Sequence record: MH992122.1
Direction: 5' to 3' (one strand)
Source: Escherichia phage OLB35
DNA: 64,000 nt
Below the pieces are notes generated by a model that saw only the letters and a program-made list of their open reading frames with translations, searched no databases and was not told the origin of the DNA. This document shows, piece by piece, positions 45,155 to 64,000 of this stretch. The first letter of the stretch is position 1; every line of letters begins with the position of its first letter. A program made the position numbers and the translations under genes.

Positions 45155-45625
45155 TTAATCATGTTTCCACACCCCATCGGTATTTGACCAAAGTCGCTGA
45201 TTATCTGATCCTCGCCACAGCTTTTTGGTCGGAAGATTTTTCTCATACTTCCCATCAATAATAACATCAACATATTTAAGCATTTCTAGCTGTTTAATAT
45301 CTTCAAACTTATATCCTGTCCACAACCAAATGCTTTTATTGGGATAAAAATTTTTTACTGTTTGAACAATGCAATGAATAACATCTCGATTGTCAGGATA
45401 GAGAGGGTCTCCTCCAGATATAGTTAATCCTTCTATATAATCATTATTCAAACATTCAATTAATTGTTCTAGTGTTTCACCAGTGAATGGAATACCATTT
45501 CTAGCATTCCATGTTGATTTATTATAACACCCTTCGCATTTATGCAAACACCCTGTAACGAAAAGAACAGTCCTGCAGCCCGGGCCATTCACAAAATCGC
45601 AAGGATAAAATCTATCATAATTCAT
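45155..45625 (-). CDS. nrdG: anaerobic ribonucleotide reductase activating protein NrdG (radical SAM)
   Basis: 156 aa; CxxxCxxC-type cluster ...GCLHKCEGCYN...; matches T4 NrdG. Confidence 0.9.
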   Translation of the reverse strand: MNYDRFYPCDFVNGPGCRTVLFVTGCLHKCEGCYNKSTWNARNGIPFTGETLEQLIECLNNDYIEGLTISGGDPLYPDNRDVIHCIVQTVKNFYPNKSIWLWTGYKFEDIKQLEMLKYVDVIIDGKYEKNLPTKKLWRGSDNQRLWSNTDGVWKHD

Positions 45626-47439
45626 TGGTGTTTAACCCTATGCATGATTTCTTTATTTTTACCGAGATTAAATCCGCGTTCGTTCGGATTTCCCAAATAA
45701 CCGCATGTCCTTCTTATAGTGTTCATCTTTTTAGGATCAGTTTCTCCACAAACTGAACAAACAAATCCGTTTTCAGTAGGAGTCATTTCATGAGTACTTC
45801 CGCATGTAAAACATTTATCCACTGGCATATTAACACCAAAATAATCTAAATGTTGTGCAGCATAATCCCAGACAGCCTCAAGACCCTTTAAATTGTTTTT
45901 CATATCTGGAAGTTCAACATAAGAAATGTGACCACCTGTCGCAATGAAATGATATGGGGCTTCGCGAGAAATCTTTTCAAACGGAGTGATATTTTCTTCT
46001 ACTGAAACATGGAAACTGTTAGTGTACCAGCCTTTATCAGTAACATCTTTTACACTTCCATATTTTTCAGTATCAAGTTTACAGAAGCGATAACAAAGGT
46101 TTTCAGCAGGAGTAGAATATAAGCTAAAAGCAAATCCAGTTCTTTCAGTCCACTGTTTAAGATGAGCATTCATTTTAGTTAAAATTTCTTGTCCAATATC
46201 ACGACCAACAAGAATATTCAATTCATGAATACCAATGTATCCTAAAGACACTGAACTTCTACCGTTTTTAAATAACTCAATTATATCGTCATCAGGTTTA
46301 AGACGAACCCCGAATGCACCTTCTTGGTAAAGAATAGGAGCAACAGTAGCTTTAACTCCTTTTAAGGAACCAATTCTACACATCAAGGCTTCAAAGCACA
46401 GATCCATTCGTTCATTGAATAATTCAACAAATTTCTGTTCATTGAACTGTGTTCCAATATAAGAATCTAATGCGATACGAGGAAGATTCAGTGTTACAAC
46501 ACCAAGATTATTGCGACCATCAAGAATTTCATTACCAGTCGAATCTTTCCATACGCTCAAGAAACTACGACAACCCATTGGAGAAACTGGAACTGAAGAA
46601 CCAGTAATAGCTTTATTATTCTTAACCGAAATAATGTCAGGATACATTCTTTTGCTTGCACATTCTAACGCAAGTTGTTTAATATCATAGTTTGGATCAT
46701 CTTTATAAAGATTAACACCTTCTTCAACAAACATAACAAGTTTAGGAAAAATAGGAGTTATTCCATCACGACCGAGACCTTTAATACGATTTTTCAGAAT
46801 TGCTTTCTGAATCATTCGTTCAGTCCAATCAGTTCCAGTACCAAATGTAATTGTTACAAAAGGCGTTTGTCCGTTTGAACTAAAGAGAGTATTTACTTCA
46901 TATTCATAAGCTTGGAATGCGTCATAGACATCTTTTTCTGTTTTGGATTGAGCATAATTCAGAATGTCCGGTATTTGCCATTTTTCTGCATCTTCAACAT
47001 GTTTAGCGTATGTACGTTTAACATAAGGAGAAAGTACTTTATCGACATTCGCAAATGTAGTTCCGCCATACTGATGTGAAGCAACTTGTGCAGTAATTTG
47101 TGCCATAATTGCAGTAGCAACACCAATCGATTTAGGCGTTTCAATTTGAGCATTGCCTAATTTAAATCCGTTCTCAAGCATTCCTTTTAAATCTACTAAA
47201 CAACAATTAGTAAATGGCAATGATATACTGTAATCTAAATCATGAAAATGAATTAACCCGGCATTATGAGCATTTACAATATGGCTTGGAAGAATACTAC
47301 AAGCGATATGTTTAGAAACAATACCGGCCATTAAATCTCTTTTTGTTGGAAAGACACGAGAATCTTTGTTGGCGTTTTCGGTATTTAATTCTTTATCTTT
47401 ATTTGAAATAAAATATAATAGTTTATATACTACATTCAT
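45622..47439 (-). CDS. nrdD: anaerobic ribonucleoside-triphosphate reductase NrdD (uninterrupted, no intron)
   Basis: 605-aa continuous ORF; C-terminal ...RRTCGYLGNPNERGFNLGK... glycyl-radical region as in T4 NrdD. Confidence 0.95.
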   Translation of the reverse strand: MNVVYKLLYFISNKDKELNTENANKDSRVFPTKRDLMAGIVSKHIACSILPSHIVNAHNAGLIHFHDLDYSISLPFTNCCLVDLKGMLENGFKLGNAQIETPKSIGVATAIMAQITAQVASHQYGGTTFANVDKVLSPYVKRTYAKHVEDAEKWQIPDILNYAQSKTEKDVYDAFQAYEYEVNTLFSSNGQTPFVTITFGTGTDWTERMIQKAILKNRIKGLGRDGITPIFPKLVMFVEEGVNLYKDDPNYDIKQLALECASKRMYPDIISVKNNKAITGSSVPVSPMGCRSFLSVWKDSTGNEILDGRNNLGVVTLNLPRIALDSYIGTQFNEQKFVELFNERMDLCFEALMCRIGSLKGVKATVAPILYQEGAFGVRLKPDDDIIELFKNGRSSVSLGYIGIHELNILVGRDIGQEILTKMNAHLKQWTERTGFAFSLYSTPAENLCYRFCKLDTEKYGSVKDVTDKGWYTNSFHVSVEENITPFEKISREAPYHFIATGGHISYVELPDMKNNLKGLEAVWDYAAQHLDYFGVNMPVDKCFTCGSTHEMTPTENGFVCSVCGETDPKKMNTIRRTCGYLGNPNERGFNLGKNKEIMHRVKHQ

Positions 47440-60542: not shown

Positions 60543-61081
60543 TCTTTTACTTCCAGTAGTTTATTTGATTTAAGGTAATTAGCCTTTTCTAGGACTTCAG
60601 AAGCATATTTACTGCCAGCACTTGTCTTCCATCCCGCATTATATGAGGATATAGCTTTTCTTATATCCCCGTTATGTATATTTAACCAATAAGAAAATTC
60701 GATATAAGCCCATCTTGTTGAATTAGACCGCTTAGATAGCATTTTCTTAATTTGGGCATCAGTCATATTATAACCAAGCTGGTTAATTCTTGCCCTCATT
60801 GTTGGTAGATAGTTTTGGAACATTCCATACGCATGGTGACCTTTCTTATCTTTAAGATTAATACCGGCAGATGATTCTTGCCATAGTATTGCGGCCATTA
60901 TGTATCCAAGTCCTTTCTTATGCATATTTTCATGCGTTTTAAATTTTCCGTCCTTAGAAAACTGTTCCCCAAACTGATAAGCATAATTCAAGTTATCGAG
61001 TTGGACATTACTAAAAGTATGCTCGGAGCTATGTGCTGATAACGAAAGAGCAAATAGACCAGCGAGTAGTGCTTTTCTCAT
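60539..61081 (-). CDS. periplasmic lytic transglycosylase-like protein
   Basis: 180 aa; signal peptide; ...AAILWQESSAG... SLT-type catalytic Glu motif. Confidence 0.55.
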   Translation of the reverse strand: MRKALLAGLFALSLSAHSSEHTFSNVQLDNLNYAYQFGEQFSKDGKFKTHENMHKKGLGYIMAAILWQESSAGINLKDKKGHHAYGMFQNYLPTMRARINQLGYNMTDAQIKKMLSKRSNSTRWAYIEFSYWLNIHNGDIRKAISSYNAGWKTSAGSKYASEVLEKANYLKSNKLLEVKE

Positions 61082-61089
61082 GTTTACCT

Positions 61090-61548
61090 CTAGATTTTAA
61101 TCACTGCTTTAGAAGCTTTTCCTGGTAGTCGTTTACTGTTAATAATAGCCATTCTACATTGAAGAGTCTTCATTTTGAATGCCGGATTTTCGCGACAAAC
61201 TGTAAGTCCTAACCAAAGATTTCCATCAGTTATTTCTAAACGGCCTGGGCGATATTCGACACCTTCGACAAAATCTTCATCAACATCTGGACGTGCCGGC
61301 ATTGATAAAAATTCTGCAACTTCTTTAACATGATTTTTTACTTTACGAAATAATTCAAAAACGTAATTCTCATCTATTTCTCTCTGGATGGCACGATCTA
61401 AGAGATGTTGAGAATACTTGATATGAAAGCCTGGTAGTCCAAGAGACTTTGCAGCATCTTTTATACCGGCATTGATTTGACGAAACTCCGTTTCAAAGAT
61501 TCGACGGAGTTTATTGCGACGGATAAAAACTTCCGAATTGATAGTCAT
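61090..61548 (-). CDS. regB: RegB site-specific endoribonuclease
   Basis: ORF trimmed to ATG at 61546-61548 (MTINSEVFIRRNKLRR...), matches T4 RegB. Confidence 0.88.
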   Translation of the reverse strand: MTINSEVFIRRNKLRRIFETEFRQINAGIKDAAKSLGLPGFHIKYSQHLLDRAIQREIDENYVFELFRKVKNHVKEVAEFLSMPARPDVDEDFVEGVEYRPGRLEITDGNLWLGLTVCRENPAFKMKTLQCRMAIINSKRLPGKASKAVIKI

Positions 61549-61556
61549 TTTTATTT

Positions 61557-61605
61557 CTCCTCTAGTTGACAGGTCTATAGTAACACAACTAGAGGAGAAG
61601 TAAAC
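61557..61605 (-). promoter_or_regulatory. early promoter within RBS-sequestering hairpin upstream of regB
   Basis: -35 GTTTAC (61600-61605), 17-bp spacer, -10 TACTAT (61577-61582); inverted repeat ctcctctagttg (61557-61568)/caactagaggag (61586-61597) contains the SD. Confidence 0.5.
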
Positions 61606-61628
61606 CACTTTTTGATAGGAATTAACTT

Positions 61629-61905
61629 TTAAACTGCTTTAGATACTTCGTCACGAACCTGGTGGAAGTTCTTGAGCTGTTCAAGGCGTTGTTCGTAATA
61701 CGCAATCTCATCTTCTTCAAGACAATCGTCAGCGTCTTCTTTCAGATATGCCTTGTACTCATTAAAGAGGGCCCATAGGCGGTTCTCAAAGTCATCAAGG
61801 CTTTGAATTTTCTTGTGCTTAGGAACAAGGCTAAAAGGATTGCTTTCAGTTATGCTTGTGACCTTTTCTTATGAGTTCCAAATACCCAGTAATAGTAGAA
61901 GCCAT
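61629..61905 (-). CDS. hypothetical protein, frame-broken at a homopolymer (absent from the ORF track)
   Basis: ATG 61903-61905 overlaps upstream stop (TAATG); after about 14 codons a T4 run (61864-61867) shifts the frame; the other frame reads ...[57 protein letters not shown] to TAA at 61629-61631. Confidence 0.35.
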
Positions 61906-62171
61906 TAGTATTTTTCCTCAGGTCGAAATACTGCACGACACGCCCACATGCTGGCTTCTTTTAGATGTTGCTTAGCGTACTTAAGAGCCTGCACTGCATC
62001 CATATCTTCTTTGGTTTGCTGCTCTGTTTCATTTTCTTTCAAGATATATGCTTCTTCAATAAGAGCATCAAACAGCAATCCAAGACGGACTTCTGCATCT
62101 TTAATAGCGTTCACTTTACCGATTTTATCATCGGTATGCGGCTTGTAGCCTTTGATGTCTTCAATCGACAT
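61905..62171 (-). CDS. hypothetical protein
   Basis: ORF 61905-62345 trimmed to ATG at 62169-62171 because the listed N-terminus overlaps the upstream gene in another frame. Confidence 0.4.
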   Translation of the reverse strand: MSIEDIKGYKPHTDDKIGKVNAIKDAEVRLGLLFDALIEEAYILKENETEQQTKEDMDAVQALKYAKQHLKEASMWACRAVFRPEEKY

Positions 62172-62385
62172 AAGGAATTTCCTCATCGGTGGCAAGGTCA
62201 TATTCGACCAATTGGATAGGCTCGTTAATACCATATCCACGTACAGTGATATCGGTTGTCGGATATTTTCCAGTAATATCACCCATTCTAAATGATTCAG
62301 TGAATGATTGCTCGCCTGAATTACTAAACCATTCTGCGAAAGCATTTAGCACATCTTTAGACCCTTCTATAATCAATTTAGCCAT
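62161..62385 (-). CDS. hypothetical protein
   Basis: 74-aa ORF, ATG overlaps the upstream stop. Confidence 0.45.
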   Translation of the reverse strand: MAKLIIEGSKDVLNAFAEWFSNSGEQSFTESFRMGDITGKYPTTDITVRGYGINEPIQLVEYDLATDEEIPYVD

Positions 62386-62747
62386 TATAGACTCTCAGTA
62401 AAGGTACGAGCGATAACGTCGCGCTGCTGTTCCGGAGTCAGAGAGTTAAAGCGAACTGCATAACCGGATACACGGATGGTCAGCTGCGGATATTTTTCCG
62501 GATGCTTAACTGCATCTTCCAGAGTTTCACGTCGCAGAACATTAACGTTCAGGTGTTGTCCACCTTCAATTTTAACTTTAGGTTGATGTTCAATTTCAAT
62601 TTCACGGGCATTCAAACCGTAGAAAATTTCCGGGTCTACAATAGCGTCTTCTTTAAAAGTCTTAGAGGCAATAATCCGGGCTTGAGTACCGTCTTCAAAA
62701 TAAATAGTGCCTTTATGTGCACCTTCAAGAATTTGATATGCTTTCAT
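62385..62747 (-). CDS. autonomous glycyl-radical cofactor (GrcA/YfiD-like, T4 Y06I-type)
   Basis: 120 aa; C-terminal ...[60 protein letters not shown] carries the RVSGY glycyl-radical motif and is essentially identical to E. coli GrcA. Confidence 0.85.
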
Positions 62748-62753
62748 ATAACC

Positions 62754-63062
62754 TCAATTAGAAAATAAATTTATCCAAGTTTTTTCTTTAATCAAAAATG
62801 GGTCGGAATTAAACGCCATTAAACTTTGAGTGATTAATCCCTTAAATGGACCATCAATAAATTCCATTTTGAAATGCGGAATAGTAGTCATCAACCGTGC
62901 ATTAGGAGCAGTACAAAGAACCTGCTGCCCTGCGAACGGACCTTTAGTCAAACGGTATCGTTTAGGTTTAAAATGGTAAATCTCATAATTTTCTACAAGG
63001 GCCCTTTTATTGCATACTGGGCTGTTATAACAATATTCAAAAACTTCAATAGTGGTCATCAT
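62754..63062 (-). CDS. hypothetical protein
   Basis: 102-aa ORF. Confidence 0.45.
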   Translation of the reverse strand: MMTTIEVFEYCYNSPVCNKRALVENYEIYHFKPKRYRLTKGPFAGQQVLCTAPNARLMTTIPHFKMEFIDGPFKGLITQSLMAFNSDPFLIKEKTWINLFSN

Positions 63063-63634
63063 TGCATTCCAATCACAAAAAATTGAGGACGAGCATTACC
63101 GCCGATGCAATATTTGCTTTTGCAGCAGTACTGTACTGTTTTAATATGGACATTGTAAATCTTATCCATATCAGGAGCTTTAATAGGCTCGTCAATTATA
63201 TACAGAATACGAGAAAGCGTTAATCCACGGAATTTAGAACCTTCATTGCCAATAAAACTACGGACAGAATCAGTAAATAAACGGAATCGAATATCATCGC
63301 TAGAATAACGAGAAAATTCTTTTTCAATGTTGCCAGCAGAAATTTTAGCATAAGCTGAAGTATTAGAAAGAACAATAACTGTTCCACCATCATACAGCCA
63401 ATTAGCAGCAAAATTAGTCACAGCAATTGATTTACCTGATTGTCTGCCGCCGTCTAAACGAAGTGTACAGTACTGCTTGAGTACGTCTTCAAATGGTGGG
63501 ATATAACCGTTCTTACAAATTTCTTCTACTCTAGCATCAGAATGGTGTGTAAAAGCATTCATCAGGGATAGATAAGGTCCAGTTAAAAATGTTCTCATAT
63601 TATTTCTCTTAAGGTTTGGGCCATTCCGTGGCAC
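63059..63634 (-). CDS. hypothetical protein
   Basis: 191-aa ORF. Confidence 0.5.
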   Translation of the reverse strand: MPRNGPNLKRNNMRTFLTGPYLSLMNAFTHHSDARVEEICKNGYIPPFEDVLKQYCTLRLDGGRQSGKSIAVTNFAANWLYDGGTVIVLSNTSAYAKISAGNIEKEFSRYSSDDIRFRLFTDSVRSFIGNEGSKFRGLTLSRILYIIDEPIKAPDMDKIYNVHIKTVQYCCKSKYCIGGNARPQFFVIGMQ

Positions 63635-63711
63635 ATGTTAGGTCCTTCGACTCGCTATGTAAACCCATTACCGCATTGCGCTCGACCACAATTCTAGGAG
63701 AAAGTAAACTG

Positions 63712-63978
63712 TTATTTACCTTTAATTACTTTAGCTGCTTCGATAGCCGCTTGCTGAAGGTCATCCATAGACATACCGAATTTAGAAGCAAAGTTATCAA
63801 TTTTCTTTTCGACAGCATTCAAAGGCTTGGCCTGTTTACCTTCATTAGCGCCAGGAAGAGCGAGAATACGCTCTTTGTCAATATAAAGGCTTACAAGTTT
63901 CTTACGGTCTTTATCGGACAAATCATGAAATGAATGGGCCTTTTTATTTATAGCGGCTTCTAATTTACCTGCACTCAC
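63712..63978 (-). CDS. hypothetical Lys-rich protein
   Basis: 88-aa ORF. Confidence 0.4.
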   Translation of the reverse strand: MSAGKLEAAINKKAHSFHDLSDKDRKKLVSLYIDKERILALPGANEGKQAKPLNAVEKKIDNFASKFGMSMDDLQQAAIEAAKVIKGK

Positions 63979-64000
63979 TCGCGCTTCAGTAATAAATTCT

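Follow-up and report, generated by a model that had tools for sequence, protein, structure and literature searches.

We analysed a stretch of 64,000 nucleotides (nt) of DNA from Escherichia phage OLB35 (sequence record MH992122.1; hereafter the window), concentrating on vs.6 (62385-62747, minus strand), a gene whose product resembles GrcA (YfiD), a stand-alone glycyl-radical cofactor of E. coli. The results presented below indicate that vs.6 is almost certainly a mosaic, composed of an old phage 5′ half and a host-derived patch that covers codons 61-117. The acquired piece is a patch of ~171 nt in an older phage gene, rather than a whole gene. The best overall explanation, which we consider probable, is that vs.6 encodes a known repair cofactor of pyruvate formate-lyase (PFL) whose 3′ half has been refreshed by gene conversion from the host.

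Mosaic structure of vs.6

A codon-by-codon comparison showed that residues 61-120 of Vs.6 are identical to those of E. coli GrcA at all 60 positions, including the RVSGY motif. The N-terminal halves of the two proteins differ, with 13 of 43 aligned residues identical (30%; expectation value (E) 7e-6), although their homology can still be recognised. In both respects this agrees with an initial annotation of the window that had been made from the sequence alone, and which proposed a nucleotide-level comparison with host grcA. That comparison revealed extended identity. Gene nt 181-351 (codons 61-117; 62397-62567, minus strand), which encode the glycyl-radical domain corresponding approximately to PflB residues 700-756, match E. 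coli grcA at 168 of 171 positions (98.2%), and the alignment contains a perfect run of 137 nt (62395-62531, minus strand). The 5′ half (codons 1-60; 62568-62747, minus strand) is AT-rich phage-lineage sequence with ~30% amino-acid identity to the grcA product, and gene nt 64-180 match grcA at 55 of 117 positions (47%). The contrast between 98.2% and 47% identity is highly significant (Fisher p = 2e-26), and a maximum chi-square analysis placed the breakpoint after gene nt 178, at the junction of codons 60 and 61 (chi2 102).

The last 180 nt of the gene contain six differences from grcA, all of them synonymous; half of them fall within the tract and the other half in the final three codons. These codons, GAG AGT CTA followed by the TAA stop (62385-62396, minus strand), form the 3′ edge of the tract and are phage-type, differing between phage genera and from E. 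coli. Base composition changes at the 5′ boundary. From the 5′ half to the tract the GC content rises from 0.36 to 0.49 and the GC content at third codon positions (GC3) from 0.23 to 0.40. The tract (GC 0.48-0.49, depending on the limits taken) is close in GC3 to the same region of E. coli (0.43), and the GC content of the window overall is 0.37. When positions 39001-64000 of the window were compared by megablast with 5,426 complete E. coli genomes, the vs.6 tract was the sole match; the best E. coli target was grcA and the second pflB. No host DNA flanked the tract in this search, and homology to the host does not extend beyond the vs.6 stop codon. In T4, vs.6 is 100% identical to E. coli grcA at the nucleotide level over codons 61-118 (174 nt), and hence at 156 of 156 positions over codons 61-112. 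The 5′ half of vs.6 is inherited vertically among T4-like phages.

Protein constraint, DNA exchange and the donor of the patch

The 60-residue C-terminal domain is near-invariant in GrcA of the sampled Enterobacterales and Pasteurellaceae. The 60 residues are unchanged in Cronobacter phage JC03, whose coding sequence shows 28 synonymous differences from E. coli, corresponding to a synonymous divergence (dS) of 1.36 (dS values given here are for the last 60 codons), and phage HK6 likewise has the same 60 residues and 28 synonymous differences. Because JC03 keeps the same residues despite this many synonymous differences, amino-acid identity is uninformative on how recent an exchange was. At synonymous sites, dS relative to E. 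coli grcA was 0.145 for OLB35 and 0.046 for T4, and between grcA of E. coli and that of other hosts it was 0.36 (Citrobacter), 0.72 (Klebsiella) and 1.02 (Salmonella). The host genera differ mutually at dS 0.36-1.4 in this region, and nonsynonymous divergence (dN) in the tract is 0. Over the last 180 nt, the phage copies match E. coli grcA at 174-178 positions, and the grcA genes of the other sampled genera match it at no more than 167. Together these results show that the amino-acid identity is due to family-wide constraint and the synonymous-site identity to recent DNA exchange. The initial annotation had offered recent capture or strong constraint as alternatives; both operate, at different levels, so that the choice between them falls away, as does the idea that the gene as a whole was captured.

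With respect to the donor, the last 180 nt of OLB35 vs.6 match grcA at 174, pflB at 138 and tdcE at 129 positions. The patch was therefore donated by grcA and not by pflB, and both pflB and tdcE are ruled out as donors. Variant E. coli grcA alleles as donors are likewise unsupported, as none of the 5,426 genomes came closer to the window tract than 96.7% identity. There is no mosaic in host grcA genes, and the composition of the tract follows that of the host, which indicates that the exchange was directed from host to phage. Transfer from phage to host is ruled out, since the two halves of host grcA diverge concordantly between genera and tract GC3 matches each host and not the phage.

Klebsiella phages provide an independent replicate

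In the vs.6 gene of Klebsiella phage KPV15, codons 61-112 match K. pneumoniae grcA at 155 of 156 positions. The KPV15 sequence was taken from IMG/VR, and K. pneumoniae grcA from a chromosome labelled as a plasmid in PLSDB. The KPV15 tract shares its 5′ boundary with the coliphage tracts, whereas its 3′ boundary is a different one, and the sequence on either side is phage-type. Comparison with phage KP179, which like KPV15 is a Jiaodavirus, dates the event. The two phages differ at 12 of 156 sites in the tract, and at 11 of these 12 KPV15 has the K. pneumoniae nucleotide; outside the tract they differ at ~7 of 180 sites in the 5′ half and at 0 of 24 at the 3′ end. The KPV15 tract is thus a conversion that postdates the split of these two close relatives. 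KP179 vs.6 itself shows a GC3 step from 0.20 to 0.55 across the breakpoint (K. pneumoniae, 0.67). The K. pneumoniae tract is matched at 95-99% identity by 95 Klebsiella-phage records, and Klebsiella phages encode the Klebsiella-type residues L77/E81 where the E. coli type is E77/K81. It is highly probable that at least two independent host-specific conversion events took place, one from E. coli and one from K. pneumoniae.

Several features of the records used here should be mentioned. Relative to KP179, KPV15 vs.6 has a 1-nt deletion in its 5′ half (~nt 545-550 of the record stretch) that breaks the reading frame, and the grcA record of K. aerogenes NCTC10006 has a 1-nt insertion (~nt 475) that truncates grcA and makes an ungapped comparison unusable; each may be either a sequencing error or the mark of a pseudogene. 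The PLSDB 'plasmids' (CP125156.1 and LR134122.1 are among the records concerned) include chromosomes, complete or in part, such as a 5.37-Mb K. pneumoniae 'plasmid unnamed2' and several E. coli entries of 0.7-4.9 Mb. Such entries supplied host grcA, pflB and tdcE sequences for the present analysis, and they are a caveat for plasmid statistics. The record ON550260.1 ('Salmonella phage PSE-D1') carries a K. pneumoniae-type tract (97.6%) that is 87% identical to the E. coli-type tract of the window, suggesting that PSE-D1 is a Jiaodavirus with a recent Klebsiella history.

Distribution among phages and probable renewal of the patch in coliphages

A GrcA-like gene was found in ~1,590 of 50,697 phage records. 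The vs.6 gene is syntenic in Tequatrovirus, Mosigvirus, Jiaodavirus, Karamvirus, Pseudotevenvirus and others, and was reported to be conserved in six of six T4-like genomes (PMC1524935). The OLB35 5′ half matches that of KP179 at 134, that of CC31 at 132 and those of JC03 and RCIP0002 at ~104 of 180 positions. The E. coli tract is confined to the E. coli T-even clade (Tequatrovirus and Mosigvirus). With E. coli grcA codons 68-124 as query, 365 phage records were at least 99% identical, 277 were 95-99% and only 3 were 90-95% identical; the lower bands of 80-90% and 60-80% contained 329 and 533 records, respectively. Thus, ~640 T-even phage records carry the E. coli tract at 95% identity or more. 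The OLB35 5′ half as query gave 154 records at 95% or more and 494 at 80-95%. When the OLB35 tract was the query, 630 records reached 95%, but only one reached 99%. As judged from these identity bands, E. coli grcA is the centre of a star of coliphage tract alleles.

We also aligned nine alleles, four of the Mosigvirus type (the window, PhAPEC2 and two more) and five of the Tequatrovirus type (T4 and four more). In nt 1-180 the two types are separated by 13 fixed differences, and in nt 181-351 by none (Fisher p 2e-4). All variants in the tract are singletons, the consensus equals E. coli, and fixed differences return in codons 118-120. Counting synonymous sites only, there are ~8 fixed differences per ~38 sites in the 5′ half and 0 per ~43 in the tract. 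Because ~8 of the fixed 5′ differences are synonymous, the contrast is not accounted for by a weaker constraint on the 5′ half. On balance, these results favour repeated renewal of the patch from the host within the coliphage clade.

Three phage records stood out in these searches. In OR539219.1 (Escherichia phage vB-Eco-KMB39) the alignment of the vs.6 locus is 418 nt long rather than 363, at 81% identity, and two coding sequences are annotated, which suggests an insertion or a split allele. PV654520.1 and OR584013.1 are named 'Pseudomonas phage' and contain a T4-type vs.6, 92% identical to that of the window, with an E. coli-like tract; their host labels look doubtful.

Phages and hosts without a converted tract

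Phage copies that are not converted are 72-88% identical to E. coli grcA, and their dS to the sampled hosts is near saturation. For this comparison hosts were sampled with one genome per species, Cronobacter being left out. CC31, JC03, HK6, RCIP0002, MHG19, GEC-3S, T5 and EPS7 showed background identity only to the sampled Enterobacter, Yersinia and other hosts. The T5-like and RB49-like homologues present in coliphages are only ~75% identical to grcA and unconverted; the lack of conversion at this level of identity fits a homology-dependent process. EC.W14-2 (116 kb, 100% match) was considered as a T5-like case of conversion and ruled out, as it is a partial Tequatrovirus genome.

Among the IMG/VR entries, a 19-kb contig (IMGVR_UViG_2706794630_000006) contains a GrcA-like gene that matches Yersinia artesiana grcA at 164 of 180 positions and has a uniform GC content of 0.47-0.48. 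This is a bacterial grcA whose contig was misclassified, or else a further host-like phage copy. Several contigs classed as 'viral' in IMG/VR terminate in the C-terminus of a bacterial PflB (...TQSM/TQTM), the GC content being uniform at ~0.5 on both sides. These are probably host pflB genes on prophage-flanking or misclassified contigs, and not phage grcA.

Identity of the Vs.6 protein

Vs.6 is 120 residues long, with an ATG start and a TAA stop codon, and its assignment as a GrcA-like stand-alone glycyl-radical protein, already made in the initial annotation, was borne out by Pfam, NCBIfam, PHROG and PDB matches. Pfam Gly_radical (PF01228) matches residues 59-101 (2e-18), and the phrog_1209 profile aligns residues 1-120 with its positions 1-121 (1.8e-62). 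Among structures, Vs.6 matches that of E. coli GrcA determined by nuclear magnetic resonance (PDB 6OWR; 2.4e-42) and residues 696-759 of PflB (PDB 1H16; 3.3e-26). The RVSGY motif is intact at residues 92-96. On the basis of the codon table and the 6OWR and 1H16 alignments, Gly95 (62463-62465, minus strand) is the predicted radical site, equivalent to Gly102 of GrcA and Gly734 of PflB. RefSeq names the near-identical proteins of PhAPEC2 and JS09 GrcA.

Vs.6 and T4 Vs.6/Y06I are identical at 112 of 120 residues, and all eight changes fall within residues 10-57. With the shared synteny, this identifies Vs.6 as the orthologue of Y06I, the T4 homologue which the initial annotation mentioned as reported to restore oxygen-fragmented PFL. 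A review (PMC8683613, citing Wagner 2001) supports that statement: it names T4 Y06I and E. coli YfiD as the two PFL spare parts validated by experiment, and reports that Y06I is radicalised by the PFL activase and revives PFL that has been cleaved by O2 at Gly734. The protein is best filed as a Vs.6/Y06I orthologue working like GrcA, having the structural features that define both. Taken jointly, orthology to T4 Vs.6/Y06I and this function are very likely. By its orthology to Y06I, Vs.6 of OLB35 would be an autonomous glycyl-radical cofactor of ~14 kDa with a presumed role in PFL repair.

Proposed mechanism

During infection, the host activase PflA would place a radical on Gly95 of Vs.6, after which radical-bearing Vs.6 would dock into host PFL that has lost its C-terminal radical domain to oxygen. 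Conversion of pyruvate to acetyl-CoA and formate could thereby be restored while the phage has host gene expression shut off, a period during which Vs.6 may supply the spare part.

The host chromosome or its fragments would constitute the homologous donor in the infected cell. T4 recombines efficiently with intracellular homologous cytosine-DNA donors, for instance plasmids (PMC8442874). We propose that homologous gene conversion, with the host chromosome as donor, put the patch in place and renews it from time to time, with crossovers resolving in the two most conserved stretches, those encoding EGGQHLNVN and RTFTE. Because crossovers must resolve inside homology, this would place the 5′ edge in the EGGQHLNVN-coding stretch in all lineages and would leave the last codons, which precede the non-homologous vs.5, phage-type. 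As each infection supplies the donor anew, conversion would be one-way. Such one-way conversion could by itself, with no selection acting, keep the tract identical to the host sequence, and the conversion pressure may be reinforced by selection for a good fit to PflB and PflA of the host; the phage copy would thereby stay in step with its present host in protein sequence as well as in DNA sequence. Contacts with host PflB and PflA are made by precisely the domain that the converted tract encodes. Our preference, which is a mild one, is that a strictly lytic phage keeps vs.6 matched to its current host by continual one-way conversion, with the E. coli version in T4, T2 and Mosigvirus and the K. 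pneumoniae version in Jiaodavirus, so that the gene would be a 'host-tracking' locus and a recorder of host history.

Relation to the phage-encoded NrdD and NrdG

The initial annotation pointed out that the phage also encodes the glycyl-radical enzyme NrdD and its activase NrdG. Both genes are present, nrdD at 45622-47439 (minus strand; Pfam NRDD, 7e-171) and nrdG at 45155-45625 (minus strand; Pfam Fer4_12/Radical_SAM), in a different gene block ~15 kb from vs.6. The implied link with Vs.6 is without support from the sequence: the best BLASTP match of Vs.6 to NrdD of the window had an E of 5.7 and was located away from the radical site. Because the converted part of vs.6 encodes the domain that fits PflB and PflA, and Vs.6 has no similarity to NrdD, the sequence comparisons argue that host PFL, and not phage NrdD, would be its client.

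In Salmonella jumbo phage SE_PL (MT001829.1, 349 kb) a grcA-like gene (1495-1857 of the stretch 1-2324) lies directly between nrdD and nrdG. Such an arrangement may point to an anaerobic module under common regulation, or to another client enzyme in the SE_PL lineage.

Alternative explanations

Several other explanations of the origin of the host-like tract were considered. One is that the tract was captured once from E. coli in the ancestor of Tequatrovirus and Mosigvirus, and was then kept by purifying selection or spread from phage to phage within the coliphage clade without further host input. The ~640 coliphage alleles do share one 5′ boundary, the tract differences of the window are private to phages and match no E. 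coli allele, the constraint on the tract protein is extreme (dN = 0), and T-even phages recombine freely among themselves. Nevertheless, we regard it as unlikely. A single capture is difficult to reconcile with the absence of synonymous fixed differences from the tract when the 5′ half has ~8, and the low-divergence tract between the two genera ends within ~10 nt of the limits of host homology, as expected of exchange from host to phage and not from phage to phage. Moreover, E. coli grcA is nearer to most alleles than the window tract is (365 records versus 1 at 99% or more), and the Klebsiella phage conversion clearly took place after the split of close relatives. That no DNA was exchanged at all, the identity being the outcome of convergence or constraint combined with host-like codon preference, would accord with the near-invariance of the C-terminal 60 residues and with the biased codons of grcA, a highly expressed gene. 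The synonymous divergence of JC03 rules out protein constraint as the sole cause, and with the same 60 residues in JC03 and HK6 differing at 28 synonymous sites this explanation is effectively refuted and retains a hardly appreciable probability. It also fails to account for the dS of 0.36-1.4 between host genera in the tract, for the AT-rich codons of the vs.6 5′ half (GC3 0.23) with their abrupt boundary, and for the Klebsiella phages matching Klebsiella codons and not E. coli ones. Chimeras due to host DNA contamination do occur in draft assemblies, but nothing specific supports an assembly artefact here. The in-frame mosaic is found with the same boundaries in ~640 phage genomes that were sequenced independently, T4 among them, the tract is not flanked by host DNA, and its private substitutions are absent from the 5,426 E. 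coli genomes; an artefact is refuted and its probability is practically nil.

With respect to function, Vs.6 might serve as a spare radical domain for O2-cleaved phage NrdD, activated by NrdG. The presence of nrdD and nrdG in the same window and the position of the SE_PL gene between them speak for this, and an early genomics paper guessed a role of vs.6 in nucleotide metabolism (PMC1524935); spare parts for other glycyl-radical enzymes are considered conceivable in a review (PMC8683613). We consider it very improbable, because Vs.6 matches the radical domain of NrdD at an E of 5.7 and those of PflB and GrcA at 3e-26 and 2e-42, respectively, the tract tracks host grcA and not a phage gene, nrdD and nrdG are distant, and T4 Y06I was shown to work with PFL and the PFL activase (PMC8683613). 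A decoy that soaks up PflA or occupies PflB, thereby redirecting host fermentation, is a further conceivable role. Perfect mimicry of the host radical domain would suit a competitive inhibitor, and the divergent N-terminal half could alter the behaviour of Vs.6 relative to GrcA; on the other hand, PFL activity is restored in vitro by the T4 protein (Wagner 2001, cited in PMC8683613), RVSGY is intact and nothing in the sequence disables the radical site. Accordingly, we give a decoy very little credence as well.

Some observations weigh against PFL repair by a cofactor refreshed from the host. Conversion is not universal: the Salmonella grcA tract has no phage match above 95%, and the T5-like, RB49-like, CC31-like and Slopekvirus/Pseudotevenvirus copies show ordinary divergence from every sampled host. 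The three private synonymous substitutions in the tract of the window occur in none of the 5,426 E. coli genomes. Recurrent conversion in coliphages is read from only nine aligned alleles and BLAST identity bands, and a single capture followed by spread of the patch among coliphages keeps the small probability given above. The function of OLB35 Vs.6 would be carried over from T4 Y06I, a 93%-identical protein. Finally, Vs.6 misses the cut-off of 170 bits of the NCBIfam GrcA equivalog TIGR04365, with 158.8 bits (E 7e-47, residues 19-120). The score falls below the cut-off because the N-terminal half is divergent.

Comparison with known systems

The gene, its annotation and its biochemical role were already known. 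T4 Vs.6/Y06I (PHROG 1209) has the same length, the same neighbourhood and the same mosaic, and differs in that OLB35 has three extra synonymous changes in the tract and other synonymous codons at 118-120. E. coli GrcA (YfiD) shares with Vs.6 the stand-alone ~14-kDa radical domain, the last 60 residues and, presumably, the function. The N-terminal half of Vs.6 is seven residues shorter than that of GrcA and ~30% identical to it, and vs.6 is located in a phage early-gene block, whereas the E. coli locus is yfiF-ung-grcA-eamB. The C-terminal domain of PflB (~696-759 in 1H16) and TdcE are homologous, have the RVSGY site and represent the piece that Vs.6 and GrcA are thought to replace; they differ from grcA in their much lower nucleotide identity to vs.6, as described above for the donor. 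Other phage GrcA-like genes, in T5-like Demerecviridae, Krischvirus/RB49, Karamvirus CC31, Pseudotevenvirus and jumbo phages such as RaK2 and SE_PL, contain the domain and the conserved core, but none has a host-identical tract.

The closest parallel in the literature is formed by cyanophage psbA and psbD, in which %GC is patchy and tracts have been exchanged between phage and host copies (Zeidner 2005; Sullivan et al. 2006, PMC1484495). These are also auxiliary metabolic genes of T4-like phages in which a copy of a damage-prone host domain is kept host-like, and vs.6 shows the features by which psbA-type mosaics are recognised: a bounded tract of host identity, a step in GC and GC3, and an own-host donor in more than one independent lineage. 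In contrast to psbA and psbD, vs.6 contains a single, sharply bounded patch of ~156-174 nt that is 98-100% identical to a named host; the case is present in T4 itself, is replicated in a second host genus and has a clear host-to-phage direction. No description of the nucleotide mosaic or of host-specific conversion was found in the literature searched, the T4 genome review (PMC150520) lying outside it. The new element is a virulent-phage gene with a sharply bounded host patch, 98-100% identical, that is homogenised across two genera and replicated in Klebsiella phages. If true, it would be a clean natural case of homologous gene conversion from a host to a lytic phage, a process usually inferred only loosely, as for cyanophage psbA. 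With T4 being 100% identical over 174 nt, the conversion rate and its genetic requirements would then be measurable in the best-developed phage model. For T4-like phages with a questionable host label in the databases, the tract could also reveal the genus of the recent host.

Genomic context of vs.6

The vs.6 region is 97-98% identical at the nucleotide level to that of the Mosigvirus phages CCU7, JS09 and PhAPEC2, and 92.8% identical to that of T4; the DNA belongs to a T4-like, Mosigvirus-type coliphage. The early-gene block has the order vs.8, vs.7, vs.6, vs.5, vs.4/Acb2, regB, vs.1, vs, and the order vs.8-vs.7-vs.6-vs.5-vs.4-regB is identical in the PhAPEC2 and T4 annotations. Synteny of the denV-vs-regB early region around vs.6 extends to KP179, CC31 and MHG19. 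Upstream of vs.6 is the vs.7 homologue (62754-63062, minus strand; 102 residues; phrog_2049, 1.4e-48), and downstream the vs.5 homologue (62161-62385, minus strand; 74 residues; phrog_1986, 3.6e-39), both in accordance with the PhAPEC2 annotation. The block also contains vs.8 (63059-63634) and regB (61090-61608; Pfam RegB match). The TAA stop of vs.6 overlaps the ATG of vs.5 (TAATG), the two genes being translationally coupled. A candidate Shine-Dalgarno sequence of vs.6, GAGG (62752-62755, minus strand), was read from the sequence (...TTGAGGTTATATG); it is separated from the ATG by 6 nt and overlaps the TGA stop of vs.7. In a scan of 61000-64000 for promoters and terminators, no promoter signal exceeded the shuffled expectation.

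The second gene downstream of vs.6 is the vs.4 homologue (61905-62345, minus strand), which matches the Acb2/Tad1 hairpin domain (PF24729, 1.6e-17) of an anti-CBASS sponge. The listed open reading frame of 146 residues overlaps vs.5, and PhAPEC2 Vs.4 has 81 residues; the real vs.4 start is probably internal to the 146-residue frame.

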